Below are positions 7,351 to 63,543 of a stretch of DNA of 64,000 nucleotides, in pieces. Within the stretch, counting starts at the first letter, position 1. Every line of letters starts with the position of its first letter. The stretch comes from a virus. Both the position numbers and the translations under genes were made by a program. A model generated the notes under the pieces. That model did no database searches. It was not told the DNA's origin and worked only from the letters and a program-made list of their open reading frames with translations. The stretch is taken from positions 128,001-192,000 of the IMG/VR virus record IMGVR_UViG_3300045988_172839; one strand, written 5' to 3'.

Positions 7351-7415
7351 GTAAGCATAGAACATAAAAATCAAAAGAACCCCAACCGAAGTTGAAGTTC
7401 TCTAGCAAGAAAAAC

Positions 7416-7625
7416 CTATCTAAGTTCTCTCACTTCAAGCGCCAAATTCCGATTCCAATCGAAAATTCTCTGTGCTTGTCCTTCTGCGCTTGACTTCATC
7501 TTCCAAAAGCGAATAGAATGCAAATCACGTGTGAACTCAATGTCATAACTTTTAGTCTTACGATTGAAAGCTACATAAGACACATATAGATCGTTACTTG
7601 GATTATATAAAGCAAAATTTCGCAT
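7416..7625 (-). CDS. hypothetical protein
   Basis: ORF track. Confidence 0.6.
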   Translation of the reverse strand: MRNFALYNPSNDLYVSYVAFNRKTKSYDIEFTRDLHSIRFWKMKSSAEGQAQRIFDWNRNLALEVRELR

Positions 7626-7645
7626 GGGGATACACTCCTAAGTTT

Positions 7646-7924
7646 CTAATTTGTATCAAAACGAAGAACGTGGTTTTCGTAAGTTTGAAGCTCTAAATGG
7701 TCATTGTAATTATCTTTCAAGACATAACCATCTAATTTAACCGCTCTATCCAAGAACTCTTTCAATTCAGACTTCTTCTTCACATAGATTGTGTATCTAG
7801 GAGAAATGGCAAATCCTACTCCCATTTGCCCTGTAATTGCGAACTTACGACCATCTTCCAAAATCACAAATTGGACAAAATCATAACCATAAGTGGTTTC
7901 AAAACGAAATTGAATGTTGTTCAT
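7646..7924 (-). CDS. hypothetical protein, paralog of 7945..8208
   Basis: FVQFVILEDGRKFAITGQ...IYVKKKSEL compared with YVQAVILPDGRKLVITGT...ITVAKKSDL. Confidence 0.7.
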   Translation of the reverse strand: MNNIQFRFETTYGYDFVQFVILEDGRKFAITGQMGVGFAISPRYTIYVKKKSELKEFLDRAVKLDGYVLKDNYNDHLELQTYENHVLRFDTN

Positions 7925-7944
7925 GTTTTACCTACTTTCTTTGT

Positions 7945-8208
7945 TTAATCCCAAGGCATTGTTTGGTCAATAGCTTTCAATTCCTCATAAAATTGAGAGC
8001 CATTTACTTCCTGATACCCCCAAGTAGTTAGGTCTTTAACAACCCATGACAAATCTGACTTCTTCGCTACTGTAATCTCAGAAAAAGCTGAAATTGGCGC
8101 GCCTGCTCCATAAGAAGTACCTGTAATCACTAACTTACGACCGTCTGGGAGAATGACTGCTTGTACATAATGATCTTTGTATTTTAATCTAATTCCTCTT
8201 GTTGTCAT
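7945..8208 (-). CDS. hypothetical protein, paralog of 7646..7924
   Basis: See the pair alignment under 7646..7924. Confidence 0.7.
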   Translation of the reverse strand: MTTRGIRLKYKDHYVQAVILPDGRKLVITGTSYGAGAPISAFSEITVAKKSDLSWVVKDLTTWGYQEVNGSQFYEELKAIDQTMPWD

Positions 8209-8227: not shown

Positions 8228-8653
8228 CTAATCTTCCCAATAAACAAAACTTCTCAAATTGAGATACAACGCATCTCTAAAAGCTACTACGCGACTTTGA
8301 CTTGAGATACCAAGAATTAAATCTACCAAACTCGTTTTGACTCCACTCAAAGGTATATCTACTTTTCGGTTTGTTTTAGTCTTATCTACATAGTATAAAT
8401 GTACCCAAGGGGCATCTTCTTTGATATAAACTTGAATAGTGAAGGGTTGAAGAGCTTGATTATCTAATGTAACCAAATCCATGTACAGAGCGTTTTCGCT
8501 CTGTGAAGTGCGATATGTTAAACCTAAACGAGAAGATCCTTTTACAAGTCTTCGAATATCAACAGGTAGACCGTGTTTCGCCATAGACTGACAAACCGTA
8601 AACAATTCTTCTAAGAGAGCTTGTCTCTCTTTATTTTTAAACAAAGTTTCCAT
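8228..8653 (-). CDS. hypothetical protein, tandem paralog family A
   Basis: N-terminal helix ERQALLEELFTV and C-terminal VAFRDALYLNL helix, as in family A. ATG 8653 follows a GAAAGGTG RBS. Confidence 0.65.
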   Translation of the reverse strand: METLFKNKERQALLEELFTVCQSMAKHGLPVDIRRLVKGSSRLGLTYRTSQSENALYMDLVTLDNQALQPFTIQVYIKEDAPWVHLYYVDKTKTNRKVDIPLSGVKTSLVDLILGISSQSRVVAFRDALYLNLRSFVYWED

Positions 8654-8665
8654 ACTTAACACCTT

Positions 8666-9121
8666 TCAACAATAATCTTGAATAGCTGTCAAACCTAACC
8701 AATACGCTAAAACTAGGTCTTTCTTACGAATATAAGGTAACAACTGTTTAGTGAACATAGTTGGACTCATTTGTAAATCATCCCAATCACAACGAAGACT
8801 GAAAGACTTACCAAACCAAATTTCTCCAGTTTCTTTAAACGGACGACTTGTAAGCTCTACAACTTGTCTGCTACCACCAAATTTATCAACTTTGATATTG
8901 TGGTAGTCAACCCCAACTGTATCTTGCAAGGTAAAAGAAATCGTCCCCTCAGAGCAACCTACCCAAATCAAATATTCACCTCTGGAGGGGGAGGAGATAC
9001 CAGTAGGGAATTTACCCATAGGATAAGTAGATTGACCCTCTAAATACTTCAAGAAGAAATTTAGTTTCTCTACTACCAACTCTTCGAGTTGGTCTCTTTT
9101 TAGTCCTTTGTATTTACTCAA
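8666..9121 (-). CDS. hypothetical protein, tandem paralog family A
   Basis: RDQLEELVVEKLNFFLKYL at the N-terminus and VLAYWLGLTAI at the C-terminus. Confidence 0.65.
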   Translation of the reverse strand: MSKYKGLKRDQLEELVVEKLNFFLKYLEGQSTYPMGKFPTGISSPSRGEYLIWVGCSEGTISFTLQDTVGVDYHNIKVDKFGGSRQVVELTSRPFKETGEIWFGKSFSLRCDWDDLQMSPTMFTKQLLPYIRKKDLVLAYWLGLTAIQDYC

Positions 9122-9584
9122 ATCTTATCTCCTCAACTACATCAAAACCGAAACCCGAAGAACGAACACCTAAATTTAAGCACTCAACTTGTTTAAGGGT
9201 TGCTACATTTTCAACTAGAGAAGTTAAAATATGGTTTAAATCATAATCAAGTAAGTTGGGGAGGTAATACTCATTTGAAACACGCTTTCGTTTTCCTGTT
9301 TTAGTATTACATGACACACTTTCAAACGTACCTCTATCCAATTCCTTGTCGAAATAAATCAGTATTTCATGAATCAAGTCGGTATCTAAGTTTGTCTCAA
9401 TCGTGTTTTTCAAGAGTCTTAGTCGAAATACAGAATCTTTTAGTAGAATTTGAGTTTTATACCTGACTGAGACTTGGGATACCGAACTCATAGGTTTAAT
9501 TTCAGCACCACTTACAAGTAACTTAAACCCCTGATATAAATAGTACCAAAATTCTGTTGTCTGCTTGTTAGTTAATCTATTCAT
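9114..9584 (-). CDS. hypothetical protein (possible family A member)
   Basis: ORF track; similar size and position; family membership uncertain. Confidence 0.6.
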   Translation of the reverse strand: MNRLTNKQTTEFWYYLYQGFKLLVSGAEIKPMSSVSQVSVRYKTQILLKDSVFRLRLLKNTIETNLDTDLIHEILIYFDKELDRGTFESVSCNTKTGKRKRVSNEYYLPNLLDYDLNHILTSLVENVATLKQVECLNLGVRSSGFGFDVVEEIRFE

Positions 9585-9616
9585 TGCACTTAAACCTCAA
9601 CTATATCTTTCTTAGT

Positions 9617-10087
9617 TCAATCCTTATCGTAATCTTTAAAATCAAACCCATACATTTTGTCGATTACATCTCTCTTAGTTTTAAAATTTCTGTAATAGCA
9701 CGTAATTCTCTTACCTCTATTAGTTACATTGATAAACCTATATTTACTTAAGTCCAATGTATCTAAGTATGACAACAAATGGTCTAAGTAGTTCTCAATA
9801 AACCATACAAAGTCTTGCTTACTTGCCTTAATGTTGACAATCAAATATCCCTCATAAATATCGTGGTATTGATTATCCGCAGAATGGTTAGACAAGCGAA
9901 CTTGGTAGTAATCATAGTTCTTATAGGCACTGTCTAAATGACTAGAGATAGACCAACCGTGCTGAGAAAGTTCATCAAAAGCTTGACTCAACTCATCCAT
10001 AGCTTGTTCGTATTCCCTACGTTGAGTATCACTTCTATTAAAACTACGTTTTCTATAAGCGTTATATCTGCTTTTTCCATAAGCCAT
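9617..10087 (-). CDS. hypothetical protein
   Basis: ATG 10087 follows GGAGG 5 nt upstream. The TTG at 10099 lies inside that RBS. Confidence 0.65.
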   Translation of the reverse strand: MAYGKSRYNAYRKRSFNRSDTQRREYEQAMDELSQAFDELSQHGWSISSHLDSAYKNYDYYQVRLSNHSADNQYHDIYEGYLIVNIKASKQDFVWFIENYLDHLLSYLDTLDLSKYRFINVTNRGKRITCYYRNFKTKRDVIDKMYGFDFKDYDKD

Positions 10088-10108
10088 ATTTACCTCCAAA
10101 ATTTAAAC

Positions 10109-10522
10109 TTAATCTTCCAAAGCACTCAAGAAACAAGCTACTTGAAAATCCGTAGAAATCGACTCTACCAAAATCTCAAAACCACGTGTAAATTGTGGAG
10201 TTCCTTTTGCTGCATATTGGACAATATGCTCCAAAGTTTTAGCTGGTAACTCACTTTCTGGTCTATAAAGACTACCTGAGAAGAAAACATCTAAGTCTGA
10301 AGATACCGAAATGTGTAAATCATGAACTCGTTTACCTGATTTCTTATTTTCCAACGAAAGGTAAACTAAGTCTTTTGCAAGTTCTACATAAACTAAGTAT
10401 CTATCAGAAACCTCGATTGTTTCTCCGCTAACTTCATCTGCTAAACCAATAACCTTATCAAAGGTTTTCTCCAAGGTTTGTTGGAGTTGTTGTCTTTTAG
10501 TGTTGCTCATCTTCTTGCTCAC
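10109..10522 (-). CDS. hypothetical protein (possible family A member)
   Basis: KRQQLQQTLEKTFDKVIGL N-terminal helix; similar size. Confidence 0.6.
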   Translation of the reverse strand: MSKKMSNTKRQQLQQTLEKTFDKVIGLADEVSGETIEVSDRYLVYVELAKDLVYLSLENKKSGKRVHDLHISVSSDLDVFFSGSLYRPESELPAKTLEHIVQYAAKGTPQFTRGFEILVESISTDFQVACFLSALED

Positions 10523-11489
10523 TTTCTAAAGCTATTTTAATCTGCTCCGCAATCCTTGATACCACCGGTACCGCAACGCTATTCCCCACTTGTTTGTACA
10601 AGTGACTATTTGCCATTTTCTCTGGGAACTTATACGAACGAGGGAACCCTTGAGTGTTAAAGCACTCTCTTGGAGTCATTTTCCGAATATCACCACCAAA
10701 GGTACGAATAATAGGTACAATGTTACCACCCATACCCATTCCTGCCATCAGAGTAGGTACTACTCCACTCTTATTTTCACGGACATATTGACCTCTTCTG
10801 TACTCATAAATTGAATTACTAGAAGTAATCTCAGAGTCTAATAAAGGATAGTAGTGCTTATCTTCACGGTAATAAAAGACCTCATCTACTGGGTTTTCAA
10901 AGTCAATTACATCATGAATCCTAACTGTTAAAGATATTTCTTCTGGGAAAACAAATCTATCGGAAACTTCTTTATCTCTGAAACCGACTATGTAAATACG
11001 TTCTCTACCCTGAGGGATATTGCCATACTTAGCTGCGTTTAAAACTTTATAATGAACATAGTAACCTAAGTCCTCCAAAGTCTGCAAAATCACTTTAAAT
11101 GTATTTCCTTTATTGTGACTAACTAGGTTCTTTACATTTTCTAAGAAAATTACTTTAGGTTCCTTTTCTTCAATAATGCGAGCTAACTCAAAGAATAAAT
11201 TTCCTCTACCTTTCTCATCATGGAAACCTTGTTAATACCCCGTTATGGAGAACGCTTGGCAAGGAAAACCACCCATAATAACATCAACATTTGGAATATC
11301 TGAGGCTGAAACTTCTTTAATGTCTCTACCATCCAACTGAACATGAGGAAAGTTTAAAGCAAAAGTTTCTCTCGCTTTTTCATCAAATTCATTTGCGTAG
11401 ATTGTTTTAAACCCTTGTTCTTCAAACCCTAAATCAATACCTCCTACTCCTGCAAAGAAGGAAGCACACGTTAATTCTAAACTGCTCAA
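10497..11489 (-). pseudogene. DNA (cytosine-5) methyltransferase interrupted by one in-frame TAA (pseudogene or read-through)
   Basis: FFAGVGG (motif I), GGFPCQAFSITGY, then TAA at 11232-11234, then in the same frame QGFHDEKGRGNLFFELARII..FLENVKN (VI), QGRERIYIVGF (VIII) and GNSVAVPV (X). Confidence 0.8.
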
Positions 11490-11503
11490 AATTTACCCCT
11501 AAT

Positions 11504-11908
11504 CTAATTTGTGTAAGCCAACAAAACCTTTAACCCTTTGATAAAGGCATCAACAAAGGCTACTGTAGGTATATTCTCTATGTAGTTGCGAATGATGGAT
11601 AACGAGAGGTTGTCATATCTTTCGTAAGGTATCCTATTAGAAATCTCTGTTTTAGGGTAACTATTGCTTGTAATGTACCAACCATTTAATCGCTCTACCT
11701 TGTAATCGTAAGCATTGAATGAAATACTATGTGATTTCTGTCCCATACGAACTACAATTCCTAAGTAAGTCCAAGGCGTATCTTGAACCTCAAAATAAGT
11801 ATTATCCGAAACTTTGAACAAACCATACACTTTAGCACCTGTGCTATGTAGCTGATGTAGCCGATACAGTAACTCTGCTAATAAATCTTTCTTTTCACCA
11901 ACAACCAT
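11504..11908 (-). CDS. hypothetical protein, tandem paralog family A
   Basis: KDLLAELLYRLHQLH at the N-terminus and VAFVDAFIKGLKVL at the C-terminus. Confidence 0.7.
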   Translation of the reverse strand: MVVGEKKDLLAELLYRLHQLHSTGAKVYGLFKVSDNTYFEVQDTPWTYLGIVVRMGQKSHSISFNAYDYKVERLNGWYITSNSYPKTEISNRIPYERYDNLSLSIIRNYIENIPTVAFVDAFIKGLKVLLAYTN

Positions 11909-11949
11909 TCATCTGACCTCTAAAACTTCAAATTTAACTGATCTTGTAA

Positions 11950-12372
11950 CTACCACTTAACCATATCATTTGTCAAAACAACTAAATCTAAAGAAGTACA
12001 CAAGTTTGTAAGGCGTTCTTTAGATGTAATTGAGTTCACAATCGCATCTAACTCAGAACCACCCAAAATCAAACTATTTTTATTTACAAAGATAGTAAAC
12101 ATAGTAGAAGTATCTATTTTATTGTTAAGATGAGACCAACCACTCACGCTATATACATCCCCATAGTCATCCACAGAGAAGTAATAAGCAAGGTTATCTT
12201 TACAATAAAGCCCAACATAAAACCCTTTAAGATGAGTTTTATAAGAAAGTGTATATTTTCTATTGTTTAAAGGTCTTTGCGTGTCCTCATAAGATACAAA
12301 TTTGGACACTTCTTCTAGTATGTTCTCAACTGATCTTTTAAGACGTTTCACTTCTTTATCTGTAAACTTCAT
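11950..12372 (-). CDS. hypothetical protein, tandem paralog family A (close to 12873..13310)
   Basis: PLNNRKYTLSYKT...AYYFSV...SGWSHL...ITSKERLTNLCTSL compared with PLNNQKYTYSYIQ...AYYFYI...RGWSYF...ISSKERFINLYTAL. Confidence 0.75.
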   Translation of the reverse strand: MKFTDKEVKRLKRSVENILEEVSKFVSYEDTQRPLNNRKYTLSYKTHLKGFYVGLYCKDNLAYYFSVDDYGDVYSVSGWSHLNNKIDTSTMFTIFVNKNSLILGGSELDAIVNSITSKERLTNLCTSLDLVVLTNDMVKW

Positions 12373-12387
12373 ATTTTAACCTCTCTC

Positions 12388-12885
12388 TCAATCTAAAACC
12401 ATATCAAATTTAAACCCATAAAACTTAGTCAGTATAACAGAAATTAAAACATCTAGTTCCATTTCAAACTGTTGTGATAAAGGTATTGAAACCTTCTCTT
12501 CAATCGAAATTGGAAGTTCATCACAAGAAAGATACCCTCTCATGGTTTTATAGGGAACCAACTCAAACCCTTGAGTCTGACATTTGAAGAATTGAATAAC
12601 TCGAACTGAAGTTAGTTTCTTCTCAGTAAACTTAATTTCCACATGAAAGTTCTCCGTAGTTTTAACAACTATTTGGGTCTTCCCTACAAAATTTACCTCA
12701 GTCACATTTAGAAAAGGTACTAAACGCAAAAGAAGTTCTTCTGTCAGAGTCCACTCTCCTCTTTGTATAGAATAAGCAATAAAAGAGTCTCTGTTGAAAA
12801 TATAAGGGTTGTAGGGAAAAGTAACCCCATCTGACACAACTAATAAACCATCTTTTGAATACATCTTAAACCTCAGTCTTTCCAC
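12388..12885 (-). CDS. hypothetical protein
   Basis: ORF track; embedded in the family A array but without the family termini. Confidence 0.65.
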   Translation of the reverse strand: MERLRFKMYSKDGLLVVSDGVTFPYNPYIFNRDSFIAYSIQRGEWTLTEELLLRLVPFLNVTEVNFVGKTQIVVKTTENFHVEIKFTEKKLTSVRVIQFFKCQTQGFELVPYKTMRGYLSCDELPISIEEKVSIPLSQQFEMELDVLISVILTKFYGFKFDMVLD

Positions 12886-13310
12886 TCAAGAAAGGTATTG
12901 TTTTGAGAAACTAAACATAAAGCAGTATACAAGTTTATAAAACGCTCTTTAGAGGAAATAGAATCAATGATAAGGTCTAAATCTCCCCACGTGATACACT
13001 TATCTGATAAGTCTATAAATAATGTAAATGCGTTTGAGTTATCTGGTTTACCTTTAAAGTAAGACCAACCTCTCATCACATAAGCGTCAGAATCAGAATC
13101 TAGCTCAATGTAAAAATAATAAGCATCTCTACCCTCACAAAATAAACTAACATAAAGTCTGTTTACATCTTGAATATAAGAGTAAGTATATTTCTGATTA
13201 TTTAAAGGAAGTTTCCCATCTTTATGATGTGTAAGTTTAGGTAAGTCTTCCAGTAAACCGTTAATTACTGTCCCAAAGCGACATAGCTCTTCAGATGTTA
13301 AATTCATCAA
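12873..13310 (-). CDS. hypothetical protein, tandem paralog family A
   Basis: Clear paralog of 11950..12372. Confidence 0.75.
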   Translation of the reverse strand: MMNLTSEELCRFGTVINGLLEDLPKLTHHKDGKLPLNNQKYTYSYIQDVNRLYVSLFCEGRDAYYFYIELDSDSDAYVMRGWSYFKGKPDNSNAFTLFIDLSDKCITWGDLDLIIDSISSKERFINLYTALCLVSQNNTFLEWKD

Positions 13311-13720
13311 TCTACCTCCATCATTAACTCTTTCAAAGCATTTAAAAGTACACGTGCCATCTCATCAGAACTTATAAACTCAATTAAATCTTCGAACTTA
13401 CTCAAATTCTTTGTTTTAAACTCTTCATAGTTTAACTTAAATCGAACCTCTTGATACTCACCATCTTTTGTGTAACCTTTACGGATGCTTCGGCAATAGA
13501 CATAATCGTCTTCAAGGTCGAAATTTAAAACATGCTCTCTACCTACATTATAAGTATACAAAGTAAGCTCAATTTCAGAACCCTCTCTCAGAAAGCGAAA
13601 CTCATAAATAAGTGAAGTGTCAAAAACTACCCCATATTCATAAGGTTCTCTATCCCACTCTTTACGCAGAAAATTTACTAAATAATCATTTAATGCTTGT
13701 CTATTTTTCGTTAAAGTCAT
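13307..13720 (-). CDS. hypothetical protein, tandem paralog family A
   Basis: ATG 13720 after a GAGG RBS and right after the upstream stop; NRQALNDYLVNFL at the N-terminus and LLNALKELMMEV at the C-terminus. Confidence 0.65.
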   Translation of the reverse strand: MTLTKNRQALNDYLVNFLRKEWDREPYEYGVVFDTSLIYEFRFLREGSEIELTLYTYNVGREHVLNFDLEDDYVYCRSIRKGYTKDGEYQEVRFKLNYEEFKTKNLSKFEDLIEFISSDEMARVLLNALKELMMEVD

Positions 13721-13722
13721 CT

Positions 13723-14232
13723 CTATACCTCGCAAAAATCATGAATATTTGTAAACAATTTAGGTAAACCTTTATAAAAAGCATCAAGCACCTCAGATTT
13801 CTGAATAGCACTCAATAAAACCATCAATTCAGAGTGTTTAACTTCAGTAACACTAATTTGCTTAGCTAAATGATTTTGAGGTCTTCCTCTATAACAAGGA
13901 ACACTCAAACCTGAAAAACTAGGAGAAAAACCAATGCCTGTACCATTTACCTGCGTACTTGAAGATACCACTTCTTCACTTAAAGTTAAACGATGTACTA
14001 AAGTATTAGTGCCTTTCCGATAAACATCAAAGTTTAAATCAACTAATAATGTATTCTCCAAAGGCATAAACATATTTGAAAATTCTACATTGTATAAAAA
14101 ATTACCTTCAGCACTAAACTGAATATCATATCCCATAAATGTATCAAAATGCTTATCTAACTGTTTATATAACTTATCTAATGCCTGTAAGCAAAAATCT
14201 AACTTTTCTACTCTTGAAACTCGAACACCCAT
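13723..14232 (-). CDS. hypothetical protein, tandem paralog family A (close to 14740..15237)
   Basis: YRGRPQNH...VLDAFYKGLPKLFTNI compared with FFRGKPKEW...VLNAFYLGLPEILNKV. Confidence 0.75.
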   Translation of the reverse strand: MGVRVSRVEKLDFCLQALDKLYKQLDKHFDTFMGYDIQFSAEGNFLYNVEFSNMFMPLENTLLVDLNFDVYRKGTNTLVHRLTLSEEVVSSSTQVNGTGIGFSPSFSGLSVPCYRGRPQNHLAKQISVTEVKHSELMVLLSAIQKSEVLDAFYKGLPKLFTNIHDFCEV

Positions 14233-14270
14233 AATGTCAACCTCATTTATTTAATCAACTAACTAAACAG

Positions 14271-14702
14271 TTACATAAACTTCATGTACTGCAAACCTTC
14301 TAAGTAAGCTAAAACCTGCTCATCAGTTAAAGAGTTAACTACTTCTACAATATCAGAACGACTAAACTCTTTCGTATAGTTTATGGATGTAACATCTACA
14401 ACACTAGAACTTCTCCCACCTACATCATACTTAAATGCTTTAAAACTATACAACAAATCCCCAGCTTCAATCATTTGTAAACCAATAATTAAACTACAAT
14501 GTTGTTTCCAACGTTTACGCGTGTATAGAGTAAAAGAAATAGATAAATTTGTATAATTCTCAGTGATACCCCACCCAAAAGTTAAACGATCATTTACCTC
14601 AACCATAGGAGGAACTTCCGGAAACACAGTCGATTGAATGTGTAAACCTCTAATCATATTATCCAAAACTTCTACTAATTGTGTTCTATCTTTATAAGAC
14701 AT
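14271..14702 (-). CDS. hypothetical protein, tandem paralog family A
   Basis: RTQLVEVLDNMIRGL at the N-terminus and VLAYLEGLQYMKF at the C-terminus. Confidence 0.7.
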   Translation of the reverse strand: MSYKDRTQLVEVLDNMIRGLHIQSTVFPEVPPMVEVNDRLTFGWGITENYTNLSISFTLYTRKRWKQHCSLIIGLQMIEAGDLLYSFKAFKYDVGGRSSSVVDVTSINYTKEFSRSDIVEVVNSLTDEQVLAYLEGLQYMKFM

Positions 14703-14739
14703 ATTTTAAACCTCATTTACTTAAATCGTGACCTTTATC

Positions 14740-15237
14740 TTATTCAAACCTTAAATCAGGAAGTTTCTTAACTTTATTCAAAATCTCTGGTAAACCTAAA
14801 TAAAACGCGTTTAAAACTGCATTAGATTGGATACCCTCGGCAATGAGTCTAGGTGCAAACAAAGCCAAAGTATCACTAGACATAGAACCAACTCTTTCCC
14901 ACTCTTTAGGTTTTCCTCTGAAGAAAGGACTACTATAACCAAAATAAGTATCTGAGTTAGCTGAAGGTTCAATAGCTAACCAAATGCGATGTTGTATAAG
15001 GTAAGAAGATTTACTCACAACTTCAATACTAACCTCCCCTGCATCATTATTACCTTTATTTGGTTCAGTAAGTGTAACTTTTAAGAAATGAGTAGAATTT
15101 ACATCCAATGCCAGATCATACTGTGGAGAGCCGATGTAGTTTCGTTTAAATTCCTTATTTCTAAGTTTTATAACATAAACTGCTAATTGCTCTAAACTTT
15201 TAATACAAACCTCTTGCTTTTCTTGTTTTGTTACCAT
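14740..15237 (-). CDS. hypothetical protein, tandem paralog family A
   Basis: Paralog of 13723..14232. Confidence 0.75.
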   Translation of the reverse strand: MVTKQEKQEVCIKSLEQLAVYVIKLRNKEFKRNYIGSPQYDLALDVNSTHFLKVTLTEPNKGNNDAGEVSIEVVSKSSYLIQHRIWLAIEPSANSDTYFGYSSPFFRGKPKEWERVGSMSSDTLALFAPRLIAEGIQSNAVLNAFYLGLPEILNKVKKLPDLRFE

Positions 15238-15257
15238 AAGTTAAACCTCTTATCTCT

Positions 15258-15701
15258 TTACGGATTGCGCAACGGAATCTTGTTTAAAGCTATTTTGAAA
15301 GCTTTTGCATGTGATTTAGGCATAGATTCTACAAGTTTCTGTACTTCTTCCTCAGATATCTCAGATTCATAAACCTTAACATACGATTTATCGTGGTCAA
15401 ATTCCCCAAATCGTGTAAATGGAAAAGTACCATAATCGAAAGTACAACCCATGTTGTAATTTAAACCTACAAACAACTTTCTAACTGGTTGTTTAGTTGT
15501 TTGAGAAAGCAAGGTCACATGCAAAGAAACGTTACTGTTTTGATGGTTCAGACTGTAAGCCACATGAAACCCACCTGAGACATCAAAGCCAATTAACCCA
15601 TTTATGTCAGTATAGGTACTAGGACTAAGTTCATAACCAACTTGTCTTAGTAGTAAGACCAACTCCTTTTGGTCTTTTGTTAAAATTGTCAACTCAAACA
15701 C
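15258..15701 (-). CDS. hypothetical protein, tandem paralog family A
   Basis: KDQKELVLLLRQVGYEL at the N-terminus and AKAFKIALNKI at the C-terminus. Confidence 0.7.
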   Translation of the reverse strand: MFELTILTKDQKELVLLLRQVGYELSPSTYTDINGLIGFDVSGGFHVAYSLNHQNSNVSLHVTLLSQTTKQPVRKLFVGLNYNMGCTFDYGTFPFTRFGEFDHDKSYVKVYESEISEEEVQKLVESMPKSHAKAFKIALNKIPLRNP

Positions 15702-15704
15702 CTC

Positions 15705-16184
15705 TCAATCACTAAACATCTTATTGTATTCAATTAAACCACAAGCTCTTTCTAAGCACGCAACTAATGGAGTAAGCAAATTATCTCTTTTATAGCTTGT
15801 CAGAACCATCTGACGAATATATGTCTCAAATGGAAATTGTGTTGTGAAACTAACTTTCAAATCATCCAAAGCCTTACCTCTACTATAAGGCAAGCTTGTA
15901 AAAGCACAATAATCAATCGGATTGTTTGAAGTCTCTGGTATATAAGCAACTTCAAAACGATGTAAAGTCGCTCCCAGTGAAGTTAAAAGACTGATACCGA
16001 AAGTTATTGAGGTTTGAGTGCTACTAAACTCTATCAAACCTTTATAGTTTTCATACTCTTTTAACTCAAACAAAATTTCAAAAGGTTTTCTATCCTGAAA
16101 ACTTAAAGTGAGTTGGTTATGTATAAGTTGCAGTCTATTTACTATTCTGTCTAGTTTTTCTTCTTTGGATTGTCTTTTAATCAA
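15705..16184 (-). CDS. hypothetical protein, tandem paralog family A
   Basis: KLDRIVNRLQLIHNQL at the N-terminus and LVACLERACGL at the C-terminus. Confidence 0.7.
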   Translation of the reverse strand: MIKRQSKEEKLDRIVNRLQLIHNQLTLSFQDRKPFEILFELKEYENYKGLIEFSSTQTSITFGISLLTSLGATLHRFEVAYIPETSNNPIDYCAFTSLPYSRGKALDDLKVSFTTQFPFETYIRQMVLTSYKRDNLLTPLVACLERACGLIEYNKMFSD

Positions 16185-16194
16185 ACTATAAACC

Positions 16195-16647
16195 TCACAT
16201 TTCCTTCAAACTTGGGTACAACAAGTAAAGATACCCCAAAAGTGCTTTCCCTAAGTAATCATATTTCATAAACTCTAACAGACCAACCAAATCTTCAAGT
16301 CTGCCATTTGGAGAAACCTCAAAATGATTAACCTCAGTAATCTCACCTTTTGAATCGTAATGATGCACTTCTACAAAAACAACATAAGGTTCAGTCGGTT
16401 CAGTTAAAACATCTAAGTAATTTGTAACAACCAACTGGAAAGTCATCCGTTTACTTCGATTGTAAAAACGTAAATGGAGATTTGGGTTGCGTCTTGTAAT
16501 ATCGTTATAAATCGAACCGATAATCTTACCATCACTTGTCATAGGCATTTTTGGTAAGTGTTTATTCAACACTTTACTACTCAAAAAATCTTGAATCAAA
16601 GTATCTAAACCTAAACGCAAATGGCAAAACTCTTTGTCTGATAACAT
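16195..16647 (-). CDS. hypothetical protein, tandem paralog family A
   Basis: Start set at ATG 16647 (MLSDKEFCHLRLGLDTL). The longer track ORF runs toward the promoter region. Confidence 0.65.
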   Translation of the reverse strand: MLSDKEFCHLRLGLDTLIQDFLSSKVLNKHLPKMPMTSDGKIIGSIYNDITRRNPNLHLRFYNRSKRMTFQLVVTNYLDVLTEPTEPYVVFVEVHHYDSKGEITEVNHFEVSPNGRLEDLVGLLEFMKYDYLGKALLGYLYLLYPSLKEM

Positions 16648-16720
16648 CTTTACTACCCCACTAAATTTCAAGCTACAACAAGCAATCAAAACTTCAATTT
16701 AATTCAAATCTTATAAATCA

Positions 16721-16749
16721 AGTTTACTACAAAAATTGAAAAATTGCAA
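16721..16749 (-). promoter_or_regulatory. sigma-A-type promoter TTGCAA-17-TAAACT
   Basis: agttta at 16721-16726 and ttgcaa at 16744-16749, 17-nt spacer. Sits at the head of the family A array. Confidence 0.65.
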
Positions 16750-16859
16750 GGATTTCACATAAGAAATTTTGATTAATTTGACAAGAATAAAAACAAAACA
16801 AAGCAATATAAAAGAGCAGTATAAAATTATACCACTCCATTATGTGTAAGTTCAAAATC

Positions 16860-17327
16860 TCAATCTTCTAAGTCTAAATCTTTGTCTTCTGGACCAAGAA
16901 TACCGTAAGAAAGTAGAGCTTGCATGTGGTTCTGTACAAAATCTCGAACTTGAGGATGTTCTCTCTCTATTTCTTCAAATTCTTGGAACTGTAAGCTTGT
17001 AAGCACTCTCTCCGTTACAATACGCATGAAATTGAAAAACAATTCCTTTGTGATTTCATCTTTTGATAGACCAAAAAATTCAAGAGACTTGTCTTTATCA
17101 AATAAACCGATACCTTGTTTCAATAGAAGTTCAAAAATTGGATATAAATTCTCCCTAGGAATAGCAACAAAAGAAGTAGCAGACAAAGTATCATCTTCTG
17201 TTCCAAACAAAGAAAGTTCAACCACACCTTCTAAAGTATCTTTCTTTTTCAAAATGCTTTGGTTGAACTTCATAAGGTTCTTCAACACCTTATCTCGAAC
17301 AGTATGTCCAATTTCCATTCTTTCCAT
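16860..17327 (-). CDS. acidic protein, paralog of 25510..25950 and 26332..26838
   Basis: C-terminal EHPQVRDFVQNHMQALLSYG compared with EHPELVDFLDSHMSSMVYIEG; D/E-rich. Confidence 0.7.
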   Translation of the reverse strand: MERMEIGHTVRDKVLKNLMKFNQSILKKKDTLEGVVELSLFGTEDDTLSATSFVAIPRENLYPIFELLLKQGIGLFDKDKSLEFFGLSKDEITKELFFNFMRIVTERVLTSLQFQEFEEIEREHPQVRDFVQNHMQALLSYGILGPEDKDLDLED

Positions 17328-17888: not shown

Positions 17889-20114
17889 TTAATCTTCTAA
17901 AGATTCATAAATTCGTTTAAATAAGACTTCCAAACAAGGAACTGCAATCGAGTTACCTGCTTGTTTGTATAACTGCAAATCTGATAAACCTGTCTCTTTT
18001 GCTTTTTGGTAGTCTTCGTAAGAGAACCCCATAAACTTCCAACACTCGCCGGGAGTCAGATACCGCATAGAATAAAAACCACTTAAAGGTTTCTGCTCTT
18101 CTGTCTGATTATCAGACAACATCAAAGCCAAATTGAACAATCCTTGAGGTTTGTTTACAATTTTCTCAGACAACCATAATACGTTTGGGTCTTTTGCAAG
18201 TTCTTCTCGTGTTGAAGAAAGACCACGCTCATATTCTACAAATGGACGAGCTAGAGGGTCACTTGCATCTGAAGGGTACAACTTAGACGGAACTTCACAA
18301 CCTACACCCTCTACAACTGTTTTAGGGTACTTATAGTCAGAAGCCAACATGCAGCTTACTTTCCCTGTCGGAAAAAGGCACTGAGTTCGCATTCCAATCG
18401 ACTCTTTAATGGTTGAAAGGTCTATGTCTTCTAAACCTTGTTCTTTCAATTTGTCGATTTTGTAATCAACTGGAACGTTAAAACGACCGAGGTAATGCAC
18501 GATACCCTTATCTCTTAACTCATAAGTAAAGCGGTCAATGTTATACTGCTTGTGCCACTTCTTTGTATCTAATTCACTACCTAACAAGGGAACCATAGTT
18601 GAACCATTATCAAATCCATTTGGAAAACGATACGGTTTATGTTTCCCTAAAATAGAGACTACGAAAATACGCTCTCTATTTTGAGGGAGTCCAAAGTCTT
18701 TTGCATTAAGGACTCCATAGTAGTTTGTATAACCTAAACCTCTCAAAAAGGAGAGCCAAGAGTGAAACCCATCTCGAAACTTAGCACTGTTTAGAGCCTT
18801 TACATTTTCTAATAACAAAACCTTTGGTTTCTTACCCTCAATCAATCGCTGACACTCCCATAAAAGAGAAGACGAAGTTCCTGAACCCTTTTCAAATCCA
18901 CGTTGTTTTCCTGCAGAACTTAAATCCGTACAGTTGTGTACAATACAGTTCTAAACAGTAAATGAATGATTATCTTTGACACTAATATCATAAACACTAG
19001 CTTTGTATGGAGTGTAACTAGCCGACTCTACGGATACCCAAACATAATCATCCTCAAAAATCATAGAGTTTGATTTAGTTTCCAAGTCACTAAACTCGAT
19101 ACGATAGTGTTCGTTGATAGACTCGCTAATTGTAAACGGTACTTTGTAAGCTTTCAACACTAACTGACTTATACCGTAGAACAATTCTTTACCTGTAACA
19201 AATAAAGTAGAGGTAAAATCTACGGTTTGTCCTGAGACCCTCTGGTAGCCCCATAGAAGCGCTCGAATTTGTTGTAAGGGTAAATCTACCCACTGAGATT
19301 GAAAATGCAATCTGTGCCGTTTTAAGGCGCTCTCACGCAAATAATTTACAAGAGCGCAATTTCGGATACGGAACTCAAGCTGTGAGTTACCTAGTTCTAA
19401 ACTTGAAGTATCAAACAACCCCTCAGTTAAGTCTCTTAATAAGTGATAATGTTTATTATCTACTTTCAAAATCAATTCTTCGCCCTTTACCATGAAAGGA
19501 TAAACAAGTAAGACACCTAATAAGCGCCAAAAATCTAAGTTCTCAAAATGGCTCTCTAGTGATGGATACCCTTGTGGGAGTTTAGACTCTGAGTTAATTG
19601 GAAACCCTAAGTAATCTGAGGTACTTAGCTCCCTCGCTTCTTTCCATTGTGGAGAGTTTAAACCCTCTTCAGATTTACTACGCACATAAAAGGGATGGTT
19701 TTCTGTGGTTGAAATATCTCTCGTAAGTTCTGAACTTACTGAAAATAAAGGCTTTAAACCTTGGTTATAAAAAGCAGTAACCTCTTTATATTCACCTGTG
19801 TGAGTTAAAACCGAGTCACCTACAACCACATTCTTAATAGGAACGTAACCTTTGTCTTTTACAAAGACTAAAGAATCTCCTGTGAAACAAGGGAAAGAGT
19901 AAGTAAACAAATCAAAATCTGGTAAATCCTCTGGCCACAACTTTGAAATGTCTCCAAAGTTAGGAGTTTCCCCATGAATAGCTTCATAAGCCTGATGGGC
20001 GAATTTGTCAATTTCGGATACACCGACTACTTCGTAATCAACACTTAAATTTCTCAGAGCCATGTGTTGAGAACCAACTCCTGCAAAGGCTTCGAACACT
20101 TTTAAATGTACCAT
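17889..20114 (-). pseudogene. DNA (cytosine-5) methyltransferase split by an intein at the catalytic Cys, with an in-frame TAG inside the intein
   Basis: N-extein FEAFAGVGS (I) ...YSFP, then intein CFTGDSLV...VYDISVKDNHSFTV-TAG-NCIVHN, then C-extein CTDLSSAGKQRGF...LLLENVKAL (VI), QNRERIFVV (VIII), GNSIAVP (X). Probable start is ATG 20114. Confidence 0.8.
18933..19889 (-). mobile_element. intein (Hint domain with degenerate LAGLIDADG-like insert)
   Basis: Starts with Cys of CFTGDS (block A) and ends with IVHN followed by the +1 Cys. VYDISVKDNHSF matches block F. 319 codons including TAG at 18951-18953. Confidence 0.8.
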
Positions 20115-21751: not shown

Positions 21752-22213
21752 CTAATCTTTCAAATCCAATAAGTTAGTCGCAACTCCTACATAGTAAGAA
21801 AACTCAGAAAGTAAACCAACCGTTTCAAACCCTTTAAACAAACCTTGAATCATTGAATCCACTGCTTGCTCTGGGAAGTTGTTTGCTAACTTCAAGTAAT
21901 CGTCAAAGGTAGCGTTTGGGGTGTTCAAGTCGAGCGTGTCGCGGGCGATACCCCTAAAGTAATTCTCTACAGAAATGTAACAATGACCTTGAGGTTGGTA
22001 TTGCATGAGAATACTTGCGAAAGCACAATCACTGCCTTTGCGCCACAAGTGGAAAGTTAGTTCATCTGGGCGGATATAAAGGTTAAACTTATCATTCACA
22101 TCTCTCTTGAATGGTCGAGAAGTGTTGTAGTTCTCAACCCAATTAGAGTAAACCTTCTCTGTTGCCATAATGACAATCGCTAGTTGTGTTCTGTTGTCTA
22201 GTGTTTGGAACAT
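21752..22213 (-). CDS. hypothetical protein, tandem paralog family B
   Basis: TQLAIVIMATEKVYSNW at the N-terminus and GFETVGLLSEFSYYVGVATNLLDLK at the C-terminus. Confidence 0.7.
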   Translation of the reverse strand: MFQTLDNRTQLAIVIMATEKVYSNWVENYNTSRPFKRDVNDKFNLYIRPDELTFHLWRKGSDCAFASILMQYQPQGHCYISVENYFRGIARDTLDLNTPNATFDDYLKLANNFPEQAVDSMIQGLFKGFETVGLLSEFSYYVGVATNLLDLKD

Positions 22214-22288
22214 AAAATGTCACACCTCTTTCTATTTCTTAATTCTTCAAATCAAATAAAACAGTAAGAACCAATCATATCAAATAAA

Positions 22289-22759
22289 TTATCGTTTTAA
22301 TTCGTACAACTCATAAGCTACACCTAAATAATACGAGAAGTCAGGATAGTAACCAAGTTGCTCAAAGCAAGAGTATACTGCTTTAATGGTCTTGGGAAGT
22401 GTGTCTTCTTGGAAGTCTTTAACAAAAGCTAAATAAGTTGTAACATCAACCTTATTAAACGTAGTTTCAAACAATCTCAAAGTTGAACCTCTTCGATAAT
22501 ATTCCATAGAAATATATAAATCATTACCTTCTGCAAACTTAGAAGTTACTAGGAAATTGCTATAAAGCAAATCGCTATTTCTACGACAAATATCAAGGTT
22601 AAAGGATTGATTATCTAACCGAAGTTGCACATTAGAAGAACTAACATTTAACGGTTCGTTCAAATTACCATAATCATAAAGACGTTTGTAAAGTGCAGCA
22701 GAAGCCATTAAGATTAAAGCAAATTGCTCTTTCGAACTTAAAGAGTTAAAACCGGACAT
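22289..22759 (-). CDS. hypothetical protein, tandem paralog family B
   Basis: Start at ATG 22759 after AAGGAAGGGG; KEQFALILMASAALYKRL at the N-terminus and CFEQLGYYPDFSYYLGVAYELYELK at the C-terminus. Confidence 0.7.
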   Translation of the reverse strand: MSGFNSLSSKEQFALILMASAALYKRLYDYGNLNEPLNVSSSNVQLRLDNQSFNLDICRRNSDLLYSNFLVTSKFAEGNDLYISMEYYRRGSTLRLFETTFNKVDVTTYLAFVKDFQEDTLPKTIKAVYSCFEQLGYYPDFSYYLGVAYELYELKR

Positions 22760-22773
22760 AGGATACCCCTTCC

Positions 22774-23676
22774 TTATTTTACATAACCAAGGCTTGCGTA
22801 TGCAGACCAAAGACCTACTTTTGTAATCAAGGACTCAAACTCAGTAACGAACCCTAACGTATACTCACATGAAATTAAACCTGAAAGACGGTCTGCGTCC
22901 TCATAGAACAAACCTACTTCAGTAAATGAATCTAAATTCCCATTTTGATTTGAAAGTCTGTAAAGATAGTGATCTCGATCATCTGTTGGTACAATCGTAA
23001 ACGTAAAGTAAGCTTTATTATCAATTAAGACAGAATAAGAAAGACCGGCTTTGTTGATAGTCAATAAGGAAGTTGGGGTTGTTTCTGCATAACTTTGTTC
23101 ATCCAACATAGAATGTAATAAGAGAGTCTTATAAAAATCAGAAATGCGAAGGAATGTAGTTCTTAGTTCTTTTCTTACATCTACCTTTGTTGCGTGTTTT
23201 CGCTTTGCTAACTGTTTAGCAGTAGGCATATACTGAACTGAAGTAGATAAGAAATGATTAAAGTTTTGAGACCATGTATTATCAGCATTGAAAATGTCAA
23301 GAATACCACTCACAAAGGGAGCTAAATATTCTGAAGGAAGTTCTGCTGCTAAACGCTCGAAATCGCTATGCGCATTGAAGATACCGCGTGTTACATTTTC
23401 AAACTGAGGGTTATTTCTAACGTAAGGAGTCACTGCAAAGCTGAGTTTACGGTCTTTGTTAAATGTAAAACTAAACGTGAACCATGTCAAATAATTTTGT
23501 CTTAGTACATTTACAAAGCAACCATGGTTATCAATGTTTACTATCACTTTGTTGTTATCAAATTCAGCCGTAGCTGGTCCGTTTAGTTCTCGTCTAAGTT
23601 TCTCCCATGTATCAACCAAAGCAGTTGCTACTAATGCAAAACGTTGTTCTTTTGTATAGGGTTTCAAATCAATCAT
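22774..23676 (-). CDS. hypothetical protein, family B, double-length (two family-like modules)
   Basis: KEQRFALVATALVDTWEKL at the N-terminus. At 300 aa it is about twice the family size, and a second module starts near KELRTTFLRISDFYKTLL. Confidence 0.65.
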   Translation of the reverse strand: MIDLKPYTKEQRFALVATALVDTWEKLRRELNGPATAEFDNNKVIVNIDNHGCFVNVLRQNYLTWFTFSFTFNKDRKLSFAVTPYVRNNPQFENVTRGIFNAHSDFERLAAELPSEYLAPFVSGILDIFNADNTWSQNFNHFLSTSVQYMPTAKQLAKRKHATKVDVRKELRTTFLRISDFYKTLLLHSMLDEQSYAETTPTSLLTINKAGLSYSVLIDNKAYFTFTIVPTDDRDHYLYRLSNQNGNLDSFTEVGLFYEDADRLSGLISCEYTLGFVTEFESLITKVGLWSAYASLGYVK

Positions 23677-24170
23677 TTTAGACCTCCATTAAAATCTGTC
23701 CAATGTACAACTTGATTAAATTCTTTGTTCAAACGATTTAATTCATCTTGTAAAATCAGTTGCAACTCAAATAAAGATTCATAGAAACTTAACCGTTGTG
23801 AGTTACTGATTGGATAGTAAAACTGTCGAACAAATTCATGCCATTCAGAGTTGTACTCTTTAAGTAAAGACTCTTTAAACTCAAACTCTACCTTACCATT
23901 ACGATAAGAACGAAATGCAGCGGAGAAAATTAAATCTGAGGATACCCCATTGATTACTTTGGATTGTCTAGTAATAGCAAGAGTTGTACTTGGTAAACCG
24001 GTAGTTCGATAAGTTACTAAAGTGAACTCTTTAAAGTTTATAGTATAAGCAAAACTAGAACTCTCTGAACTAAACTCAAAGTTTTGAAAAGGGAGTAAGT
24101 CAATCCAAGTGTTTACGACTAGGTTTAGTATTTGATACAAGTCAATCGGCTCAAGTTGTTTAGTTGCCAT
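23673..24170 (-). CDS. hypothetical protein, tandem paralog family B
   Basis: IDLYQILNLVVNTWIDL at the N-terminus; similar size. Confidence 0.65.
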   Translation of the reverse strand: MATKQLEPIDLYQILNLVVNTWIDLLPFQNFEFSSESSSFAYTINFKEFTLVTYRTTGLPSTTLAITRQSKVINGVSSDLIFSAAFRSYRNGKVEFEFKESLLKEYNSEWHEFVRQFYYPISNSQRLSFYESLFELQLILQDELNRLNKEFNQVVHWTDFNGGLK

Positions 24171-24639
24171 GTGAAATACCCTCTCTAAACTCTACTTCTC
24201 TATCCAACTGTGTAAGAACATCTCTTAAAGTCATTTCTAGTGCAAAACGTTGAGACTCGTTTAACTGAGCAACAATTTCTGAAACATAAGGGTACCACAT
24301 ATAAGAGTCTGTACCTAAACTATCTCTCCAAAACTCAAACTGCACCTTATCTCGATTGAAAAAGCGCACACCTGACTTAATTTCATAATCAGCAACACCA
24401 TTAACCCAAAAATCATAAGGAGGGCAATTCCCATCCAATCGAATTGAAATACTTAGGTTTAGGTGTCCATTCCCCCTAAAAGTAGTTACAACTAATGAGG
24501 AATTGTTTGCATGAATATCATAAGAAGGAGAATTAAATCTAACGATGAACTGTGGAAATCTACGACCCTCCAACCAACGGTATAGAACCTTTTGAAATAA
24601 ACTATTTAATTTAACTACTTCTACTTCTGATTGAACCAT
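24160..24639 (-). CDS. hypothetical protein, tandem paralog family B
   Basis: VKLNSLFQKVLYRWLEG at the N-terminus. Shares RSYRNGKVEFEF / RFFNRDKVQFEF with 23673..24170. Confidence 0.65.
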   Translation of the reverse strand: MVQSEVEVVKLNSLFQKVLYRWLEGRRFPQFIVRFNSPSYDIHANNSSLVVTTFRGNGHLNLSISIRLDGNCPPYDFWVNGVADYEIKSGVRFFNRDKVQFEFWRDSLGTDSYMWYPYVSEIVAQLNESQRFALEMTLRDVLTQLDREVEFREGISHGN

Positions 24640-24643
24640 CTAA

Positions 24644-25117
24644 TTAACCTCCAATCCAACCGTTGAGAACCGCAAAGCGGTGTTGATAACCCTGAAACTG
24701 TGACTCTAAACCAATCAACGTAAAGAAGAAAGGTAAAGAGCGTAGAATAGAAACATACGCAGGTTGCGGAACAACATCTAGTAAGACTTTAAAATCTTCT
24801 ACCGAGAAAGCAACTCCTTCGAGTGCTTTTGTATCCACTAACTTACCATGAGAGTAGTTTTGAACCATCAAATTCAACTCTAAACCATTGTCTGCGACTG
24901 TAAAATACAAAGACACAAATGGTCGTCCTAACTGTCTTAAGACGGTGTAACTAAAGGTATTTGAAGTACAGAACCATTCTACTCCGTCTTGTTTTAAACC
25001 GTCAGCGCTAATGCTTTGTAAGTACCTAGAGTTATCAAACCAAACTTGAAAGGCAGAGCGCATTGCTAATAAAACTTGTACATTCTCTGGTAATTCGTTG
25101 ACATATTGTGCCATCAT
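24644..25117 (-). CDS. hypothetical protein, tandem paralog family B
   Basis: Start at ATG 25117 after a GAAGGAG RBS; VQVLLAMRSAFQVWFDN at the N-terminus. Confidence 0.65.
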   Translation of the reverse strand: MMAQYVNELPENVQVLLAMRSAFQVWFDNSRYLQSISADGLKQDGVEWFCTSNTFSYTVLRQLGRPFVSLYFTVADNGLELNLMVQNYSHGKLVDTKALEGVAFSVEDFKVLLDVVPQPAYVSILRSLPFFFTLIGLESQFQGYQHRFAVLNGWIGG

Positions 25118-25156
25118 AACTTTCTTCTCCTTCAATCTCAAAATCTTGTTAAAAAT

Positions 25157-38498: not shown

Positions 38499-38828
38499 CT
38501 AACTTTCAATATACAAAATTTCAACCACTTCAAGAATAAAGTGCTCTAAAACTCTCTCCGAGTCGATTTGAGGATACCCAAGGATAGGTGTAATCTCATT
38601 TTCAGACCAATAAGGTGCAGAATTACCTAATATCACAATCTTTTCTGTACCGTCTACAAACTCAACTGAAATTTGCGATTTAGTTAATTTTATAGAGCGA
38701 ACAAGAGTATAAGTGTCCCAAAGTTGTTCTTCTTTATCCACACTGTGTACTACAAGCGAAATCAGAGTGGAAGCTAGGTATTCTGGTACAGTCTTATCCA
38801 ACATGTAATTCTCATATTTTAATCTCAT
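38499..38828 (-). CDS. hypothetical protein, triplet family (MRLKYE...PYWSENEI)
   Basis: MRLKYENY...ILGNSAPYWSENEITP. Confidence 0.7.
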   Translation of the reverse strand: MRLKYENYMLDKTVPEYLASTLISLVVHSVDKEEQLWDTYTLVRSIKLTKSQISVEFVDGTEKIVILGNSAPYWSENEITPILGYPQIDSERVLEHFILEVVEILYIES

Positions 38829-57135: not shown

Positions 57136-57166
57136 ACAGTTTCTCACTTTCTTCTTTATTTTCTTT

Positions 57167-57195: not shown

Positions 57196-57197
57196 AG

Positions 57198-57233: not shown

Positions 57234-57240
57234 ACATTCT

Positions 57241-63541: not shown

Positions 63542-63543
63542 TA

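Follow-up and report, generated by a model that had tools for sequence, protein, structure and literature searches.

The window considered here is a stretch of 64,000 nucleotides, positions 128,001 to 192,000 of the viral record IMGVR_UViG_3300045988_172839, which comes from an uncultivated phage of ~240 kb found in human oral metagenomes. Its subject is a gene array. Between window positions 8228 and 16689, the open reading frame (ORF) list contains 16 consecutive, closely packed ORFs that encode proteins of 133–169 amino acids (aa), and every long ORF in this interval lies on the minus strand. The row is interrupted by a C5 DNA methylase gene, which is itself split by an in-frame TAA. Judged from the comparisons below, 13 of the 16 small ORFs at 8.2–16.2 kb very probably descend from one ancestral gene. 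A sequence-only reading of the window had claimed about 14 tandem paralogues; one large family stands, with a supported count of 13 and not 14, as ORFs 12388 and 16195 are unlinked and ORF 9617 encodes a homologue of the anti-CRISPR protein AcrIIA5.

ORFs are named by their lower window coordinate (e.g. 8228 is 8228..8653). Starts were refined from gene calls on identical contigs for 16195-16647, 15258-15692, 13307-13720, 12873-13307, 12388-12864, 10109-10510, 9617-10087 and 8228-8653. HMM stands for hidden Markov model.

16195..16647, minus strand: 150 aa, the operon's first gene; family membership unsupported
15705..16184, minus strand: family member, 159 aa, branch of 13723 and 14740; HHalign 95% to 13723 and 92% to 14740, recruited by jackhmmer
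15258..15692, minus strand: family member with weaker support, 144 aa; 13723-seeded jackhmmer, 8228-seeded HMM E 0.003
14740..15237, minus strand: family member, 165 aa, paralogue of 13723; BLASTP E 1e-7 over the full length, HHalign 100%
14271..14702, minus strand: family member, 143 aa; first in leave-one-out, HHalign 54% to 8666 and 46% to 8228, recruited by jackhmmer
13723..14232, minus strand: family member, 169 aa; AlphaFold2 model, branch motif S-x-P-C-x-R-G-K
13307..13720, minus strand: family member, 137 aa; first in leave-one-out, recruited from 8228 at inclusion E 1e-5
12873..13307, minus strand: family member, 144 aa, paralogue of 11950; BLASTP 38%, E 7e-33, HHalign 46% to 13723 over the full length, recruited by jackhmmer
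12388..12864, minus strand: 158-aa ORF within the array; family membership unsupported
11950..12372, minus strand: family member, 140 aa, paralogue of 12873; in the 8228-seeded superfamily HMM, E 6e-8
11504..11908, minus strand: family member, 134 aa; first in leave-one-out, best non-training match of the C-terminal motif HMM, recruited at E 1e-5
10497..11489, minus strand: C5 DNA methylase gene, TAA-interrupted; non-member
10109..10510, minus strand: family member, 133 aa, branch of 8228 and 9114; HHalign 100% to 9114 and 98% to 8228
9617..10087, minus strand: AcrIIA5 homologue, 156 aa from the ATG at MAYGKS; insertion, non-member
9114..9584, minus strand: family member, 156 aa; HHalign 100% to 10109 and 98% to 8228
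8666..9121, minus strand: family member, 151 aa; recruited from 8228 at E 1e-5, HHalign 54% to 14271, C-terminal motif HMM
8228..8653, minus strand: family member, 141 aa; AlphaFold2 model

Kinship among the array proteins

Pairwise searches among the window ORFs (BLASTP and phmmer) find two significant pairs within the array and no further one. These are 11950/12873, with 38% identity (BLASTP E 7e-33), and 13723/14740, with 21% identity (BLASTP E 1e-7). Both had been described as recent duplicates. They are real paralogues but not recent ones, at these identities and with a dN (nonsynonymous divergence) of ~1. Paralogue comparisons give dN ~1 and are therefore saturated, and as the branches of the family share 10–38% identity, the duplications are ancient.

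All-against-all profile alignment, which the sequence-only reading had put forward as its check, adds links beyond the two obvious pairs by joining 8228, 9114 and 10109, and by joining 15705 to 13723 and 14740. Here, profiles were built for each window ORF from alignments across 47 related phage loci. HHalign probabilities are 100% for 9114/10109, 98% for both 8228/10109 and 8228/9114, 95% for 13723/15705, 92% for 14740/15705 and 100% for 13723/14740. Further links are those of 8666/14271 (54%), 11950/13723 (47%, full length), 8228/14271 (46%), 8228/8666 (38%) and 10109/11504 (37%), and many inter-branch links at 30–55% are full-length and collinear. Deeper alignments gave higher probabilities. 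With the known subfamilies excluded, array–array scores exceed array–control scores (Mann–Whitney p 5e-13), and 15% of the array–array alignments span 80 columns or more, versus 1% and 0% in the control classes.

Iterative searches with jackhmmer were run in a closed pool of 1616 ORFs plus reversed decoys. The 8228 seed reaches 12 window members, with no decoy among 561 matches, and the 13723 seed adds 15258 to give 13 members; no reversed decoy was recruited in either of the two seed runs used. With inclusion tightened to E 1e-5, 9114, 10109, 13307, 8666 and 11504 remain within reach of the 8228 seed. Control families, that is DHFR, the methylases, AcrIIA5 and the 6828, 7646, 16860 and 17328 groups, were never recruited by array seeds. 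Control seeds in turn stayed within their own paralogue groups, except for the 21752/24644 family, which reached array-type families.

Some members that were left out of a model could also be recovered. An HMM made without one group of window members placed a member of that group first among ~533 sequences (window proteins, shuffles and reversals) in 6 of 12 trials. An HMM of the C-terminal motif, trained on the 13723 and 8228 branches only, placed 11504, 14271 and 8666 first, second and fourth of the non-training sequences. Among the 107 window ORFs, the best non-training match of the 8228-seeded superfamily HMM is 15258 (E 0.003), whereas 12388 (E 0.26), 16195 (E 1.0) and AcrIIA5 (E 4.9) are at background. 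ORFs 12388 and 16195, which were probably included in the earlier count, were never recruited by jackhmmer either and are not supported as members. In most relatives the 16195 orthologue is the most upstream gene of the array or close to it, and the 12388 orthologue adjoins the 11950-type gene in most of those that have one.

Five further small tandem paralogues lie at window 21752-25141 (21752, 22289 and 24644, plus 23673 and 24160), upstream of methylase and exonuclease genes, and show weak links to the array superfamily. In jackhmmer the 24644 seed recruits an array-type family of the relatives (E 2e-4) and later the 11950/12873 branch. Given these weak links, the superfamily may number ~18 in the window. 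Other tandem or dispersed paralogue groups occur at 16860-17327 with 25510-25950 and 26332-26838, and at 7646-8208, 38499-39474, 61640-63547 and 56746-57624. Duplication of genes is habitual in this genome and not peculiar to the array.

Predicted fold and conserved positions

AlphaFold2 gave confident models for one member of each of the two branches with the deepest alignments. The model of 13723 (alignment of 112 sequences) has a predicted local distance difference test score (pLDDT) of 85.8 and a predicted template modelling score (pTM) of 0.81; that of 8228 (alignment of 123 sequences) has a pLDDT of 91.8 and a pTM of 0.87, its residues being numbered from a longer, 144-aa ORF that starts at 8662. 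The predicted elements are:

13723: helix 7-27; strands 38-42, 47-57, 61-72, 77-89, 105-114, 124-128; helix 133-140; helix 146-166
8228: helix 11-30; strands 37-41, 46-53, 58-65, 70-81, 84-92, 98-104; helix 105-117; helix 122-135

The order of elements is the same in both, one helix, six strands and two helices, in branches that have no direct profile similarity. The layout that had been proposed from sequence, an N-terminal helix, a beta-rich middle and a C-terminal helix, thus holds for both modelled members. We infer a shared topology across the branches from these models; the comparison is one of the order of secondary-structure elements and not of superposition or strand topology. A secondary-structure predictor based on residue propensity and hydrophobic periodicity was dropped, as its three-state accuracy (Q3) was ~0.6 against the two models.

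Conservation follows the same layout. In the 13-member alignment, the mean BLOSUM62 score per column is 0.41 in the C-terminal helices, 0.15 in the N-terminal helix and 0.01 in the beta region, which bears out the earlier description of conserved terminal helices around a variable middle. Columns shared across the 13 members comprise a Leu in helix 1, a His-x-h-x-h in strand 4, an Asp, a Ser, an L-h-x-x-I and an F...L. In addition, the S-x-P-C-x-R-G-K segment is nearly invariant in the 13723 branch.

The predicted fold is undescribed as far as the Protein Data Bank (PDB) goes. Foldseek against the PDB found no significant match for the 13723 or the 8228 model (best E 0.17 and 0.018, respectively), and in a PDB sequence search with the concatenated array and two profiles AcrIIA5 was the sole match. 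The members have no match in Pfam, PHROGs or PADLOC, sub-threshold matches being at chance level. The view of the array as a small ORFan fold expanded in tandem is therefore upheld, there being no Pfam, PHROG, PADLOC or PDB relative. Among viral predicted structures (BFVD), the 8228 model has a single match below E 0.001, H6X4N8 of the Klebsiella jumbo phage vB_KleM_RaK2 (E 3e-4, probability 0.99). This protein, like 8228, comes from a jumbo phage; the TM-scores are 0.34 and 0.26 at 10% identity, and being uncharacterised it carries no functional information.

The p32/gC1qBP/Mam33 proteins consist of an N-terminal helix, an antiparallel sheet and two C-terminal helices, which is the element order of the family models, and the C1QBP entries 6szw and 3rpx are among the weak Foldseek matches of both. 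The similarity is insignificant (C1QBP probability 0.06–0.07, E 0.45–0.98 in Foldseek). These proteins are without sequence similarity to the family, which is not uniformly acidic (isoelectric points, pI, of 4.7–8.7). The idea that the members are DNA mimics was ruled out, as net charge and pI vary over this range with no acidic trend.

The alternative to common descent is that the array holds several unrelated small families (8228/9114/10109, 13723/14740/15705, 11950/12873 and singletons) which converged on size and a helix–sheet–helix layout, the links between them being profile drift. We regard this as improbable, and several results weigh in its favour and against a single family. When the two deepest family profiles, those of the 13723 and 8228 branches, are compared directly, the HHalign probability is 0.3%. 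Narrow, BLAST-defined families from the 47 loci give weaker links than the jackhmmer-expanded groups, mostly <55%, so that the branches lack a single family linking them. Many of the links hold only by transitivity, HHalign between branches mostly gives no more than 30–55%, and the recruitment of 13–17 reversed decoys in 2 of 15 jackhmmer runs implies some drift risk for iterative links. Finally, what the two models are known to share is an order of elements. Against convergence stand the control families of the same phage, which array seeds never recruited (the 21752/24644 exception concerns a control seed), the six window ORFs that are linked from 8228 at inclusion E 1e-5, and the leave-one-out and motif tests, which put left-out members first among ~530 sequences. 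The enrichment of array–array scores, the identical element order in two independent models and the conserved columns common to all 13 sequences also argue for one family.

The AcrIIA5 gene, the relatives and the genome setting

The ORF at 9617-10099 shows 64–66% identity to AcrIIA5 of the Streptococcus phages D4276, Sfi21 and phiKSM96 (tblastn), and it is the sole array match when the concatenated array is compared with 50,697 phage records. Read from its second ATG (MAYGKS...), the 9617-10087 product matches PDB 6LKF over residues 1-140 (E 2.5e-50) and phrog_14794 (E 1e-61). The basic N-terminal segment is retained, with MAYGKSRYN.YRKRSFNRS conserved. By sequence, this gene encodes an AcrIIA5 homologue and putative Cas9 inhibitor; AcrIIA5 blocks Cas9 interference in S. 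thermophilus (PMC9120153).

AcrIIA5 is known from Streptococcus phages D4276, D1126 and Sfi21. The homologue in the array is about the size of a family member and lies in the same operon. By eye its N-terminal helix is also alike; its inclusion as a divergent member was ruled out by HMM, HHalign and Foldseek. It is unrelated to the members in sequence (E 4.9 with the 8228-seeded HMM, HHalign <=2.5%), and 6LKF is absent from the best 50 Foldseek matches listed for either model. Among 15 tabulated loci (the window and 14 relatives), the gene is present in 3, namely the window, L005 and L037, always between the 10109 and 9114 orthologues. In most other relatives the 10109-type gene is followed directly by a 9114- or 8666-type gene. 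The presence of AcrIIA5 in few loci, between neighbours that otherwise adjoin, identifies it as an insertion into the array. As this AcrIIA5 is of the streptococcal-phage type, the host is probably Streptococcus.

The array appears to belong to a narrow group of phages. The exact 13723-14232 protein occurs on 22 contigs, 14 of them in the 0.2–1 Mb class; the contigs shown from that class measure 238,470–247,546 bp, and one (238,733 bp) is labelled human oral metagenome. Related contigs measure 200–300 kb. No DNA-level match was found for the array region or the first 25 kb of the window (megablast, 50,697 phage records). At the protein level, 13723 has 124 homologous clusters, and those examined lie on contigs of jumbo-phage size. 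An exhaustive HMMER search of 1.84 billion representatives with the superfamily profile returned 41 clusters at E <=1e-3. Of these, 36 map to families used for the profile and already seen in the phage clade, 4 are 464–1494-aa proteins with multiple short matches that look spurious, and one is a weak new match on another 237-kb contig. On the searches made, the family is essentially confined to a clade of 200–300-kb oral phages. The weak new match (L107 8001-8810, on ERZ28633964 scaffold_34, 237 kb) is to a 269-aa protein, two stretches of which match the profile (E 2e-4). Its gene has other surroundings, with neighbours of 268 and 290 aa; the protein may be a fusion or a remote relative.

The 14 tabulated related loci with the array have between 4 and 17 copies each, and one more distant locus showed none. 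Gene content varies strongly: some related loci are without whole branches, branches beyond those of the window exist, and unrelated gene blocks are inserted in some relatives. The region behaves as an accessory-gene hot spot. Between orthologues, the ratio of nonsynonymous to synonymous substitution (dN/dS) is 0.08–0.34, a range that also includes DHFR and the 17328 gene (0.14 each). The "hypervariable" core of the sequence-only reading is not borne out by these values, which indicate purifying selection as in DHFR and other controls, so that the genes are functional and conserved and not hypervariable.

Extra genes were seen at two places in relatives. At L024 12433-17028, with equivalents in L037, L042 and L043, larger genes stand between the 12388-type gene and the methylase. 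They encode three ~200-aa paralogues, a 285-aa DUF7701 protein (with a weak, sub-threshold DUF4365 match) and a 443-aa protein, and have no PADLOC or informative PHROG match. In the larger relatives L016, L019, L023-L026, L035 and L038, genes for 813–2097-aa proteins and an N-acetylglucosaminidase gene lie between the 16860-type gene and the array. In L023-L026 the large genes code for proteins that have G5 domains and match LPXTG anchors weakly or faintly. These are genes for surface proteins of Gram-positive type, here in a phage.

The 170-nt spacer upstream of the first gene contains two candidate promoters, and the first terminator-like hairpin on the minus strand lies downstream of the array:

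16721..16775, minus strand: promoter-like element of ~55 nt, contains TTGCAA-17-TAAACT (16749-16721)
16826..16855, minus strand: alternative sigma-70-like site, TTGAAC-18-TATAAT, with an extended -10 TG
7374..7403, minus strand: terminator-like hairpin, 13-pair stem followed by a T run

The 16721-16775 element is unique in the window and is kept in the divergent relatives L017 and L020, in which the rest of the spacer has diverged. Its TTGCAA-17-TAAACT has 8 of 12 consensus positions and was therefore unlisted in the consensus scan. The site at 16855-16826 has 10 of 12 and is not conserved in L017 and L020. The promoter that had been placed at 16721-16749 accordingly falls within a conserved stretch, and the 16721-16775 element is likely the promoter or control region of the array. 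From 16647 to 7416 the genes are closely packed on one strand. As the first hairpin downstream of the array comes only at 7403-7374, the transcription unit probably also includes three small genes at 7416-8208, and the hairpin is the probable, predicted end of the unit.

Elsewhere in the window are genes for four DNA methylases, DHFR, a 5'-3' exonuclease, a UvrD-type helicase, a DHH protein and an MreB-like protein; no structural genes turned up in those of its regions that were scanned. These assignments place the array in a DNA-metabolism block of a jumbo phage, the predicted replication, nucleotide-metabolism and DNA-methylation part of the genome. The 407-aa protein at 31628-32851 has a match to PF21522, the C-terminal domain of archaeal MreB-like actins (E 7.8e-10); on this match, a jumbo phage that infects a Gram-positive host would encode an actin-like protein.

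Two of the methylase genes are broken. The array methylase has a TAA stop at 11232-11234 (minus strand) where the relative L002 has CAA (Gln), and the intein-containing C5 methylase has a TAG stop at 18951-18953 (minus strand) where L002 has CAG. Relative to L002, both are C-to-T changes from Gln to stop, and the second sits seven codons before the HN|C junction at the intein's C-terminus. Two other contigs, from different samples, have the same methylase splits in their gene calls. The two stops may be independent C5 methylase knock-outs that were selected, or they may come from deamination of methylated cytosine. Stop-codon reassignment is disfavoured, as relatives have Gln codons at both sites and the window has no tRNA gene.

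Possible functions of the array

Gene position and one neighbouring gene point, tentatively and at somewhat less than even odds, to an early-expressed function in host interaction or anti-defence. The joint reading, in which there is one family and it serves host interaction or anti-defence, is finely balanced. In the mechanism proposed, the three helices and a few core positions would keep a common scaffold, and the poorly conserved beta region would give each copy its own binding partner. The copies, which are probably expressed together, would then each bind a different host or defence component. A stronger and more doubtful version sees the array as an arsenal against defence systems, which arose as one new scaffold was duplicated again and again. 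Here, each of the at least 13 paralogues would act against a different streptococcal defence or host factor, and AcrIIA5 would be one that was acquired from elsewhere.

The embedded AcrIIA5 gene and the varying gene content provide context that supports the anti-defence idea. The array contains AcrIIA5 and has DNA methylase genes both inside it and alongside, which is an association only. A number of observations count against a host-directed function. There is no sign of diversifying selection among the orthologues, given the dN/dS range above. Many array genes keep their order from relative to relative, as might equally be expected of housekeeping genes of the phage. The AcrIIA5 insertion may merely mean that the site tolerates insertions. 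Lastly, the members have no similarity to a known anti-defence, defence or host-takeover protein in the libraries, the PDB or Foldseek. PADLOC gave no match for 10 array proteins, the neighbours or the inserted genes in relatives. Of characterised inhibitors, AcrIIA5 is the sole tblastn match in the 50,697 phage records, no dedicated anti-defence library having been searched.

An unlikely alternative is that the members are accessory factors, such as adaptors or regulators, for the phage's own replication, transcription or DNA-modification machinery. Purifying selection like that on neighbouring DHFR and core genes would suit this, as would the recurring gene order and a location among methylase, exonuclease, helicase and DHFR genes; the S-x-P-C-x-R-G-K motif suggests a defined site and not a generic surface. 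On the other hand, a copy number of 4 to 17, with whole branches missing in some relatives, is unusual for core machinery. In addition, library and PDB sequence searches detected no nucleic-acid-binding or enzymatic domain, and the pI values are without pattern.

Packaging of the proteins in the virion and their ejection with the DNA, as for the paralogous inner-body or ejection proteins of giant phages, is quite improbable. Head-internal ejection proteins of giant phages are encoded with structural genes, whereas the array lies in a DNA-metabolism block with no structural genes in the regions scanned. The sigma-70-like, conserved promoter element upstream and the small size of the proteins also speak against it, and the best viral structural match, to a protein of jumbo phage RaK2, speaks for it. 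One source (PMC5694885) describes tandem paralogous head-internal families in giant phages such as SPN3US, where the paralogous families of SPN3US and phiKZ-like phages are ejection proteins carried inside the head; like the array, these are tandem paralogues in phages of >200 kb.

An action against competing phages or mobile elements (superinfection exclusion or an immunity-like role) instead of host defence is very improbable: variable tandem arrays of small divergent proteins do resemble immunity-gene arrays, the 8228 model has a weak Foldseek match to the contact-dependent-inhibition immunity protein 6cp9 (probability 0.54, E 0.26) and relatives carry the extra block of larger genes with the DUF7701 protein at the same site, but the 6cp9 match is insignificant, no toxin gene was recognised beside the array and PADLOC gave no match.

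Comparable arrangements are known in other viruses. The MGF360/505 families of African swine fever virus (ASFV) and the poxvirus host-range families, known as "genomic accordions", belong to eukaryotic viruses, and their role in immune evasion was shown experimentally. They resemble the array in that strongly diverged tandem paralogues of a single fold occupy a variable part of the genome and differ in copy number between related viruses. They have no homology to the array, whose copies are ancient and not recently amplified. The SPO1 gp37-60 and T4/T5 early regions are host-takeover modules. They share with the array a long co-oriented run of small genes, a sigma-70-like promoter and a position beside nucleotide-metabolism genes; they are mostly unrelated ORFans, in contrast to the one expanded fold of the array.

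In sum, the array represents a new protein family whose type of arrangement has precedents, and its context gives one firm hint at a function. Multigene families are common in large phages and their roles are mostly obscure. With 13 diverged copies, two confident models, a copy number of 4 to 17 and an embedded anti-CRISPR of validated type, the array offers a test system for them. The presence of AcrIIA5 in an uncultivated ~240-kb oral phage points to Cas9-bearing streptococci as hosts. If the copies serve the phage's own machinery, the case would be a warning not to deduce function in jumbo phages from neighbouring genes. If, instead, they inhibit different host systems, they would provide many new tools and targets at once, and phage counter-defence proteins would gain a new and prolific family in this fold. 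It would also follow that phages, as poxviruses and ASFV do, assemble counter-defence repertoires by expansion of a single scaffold.

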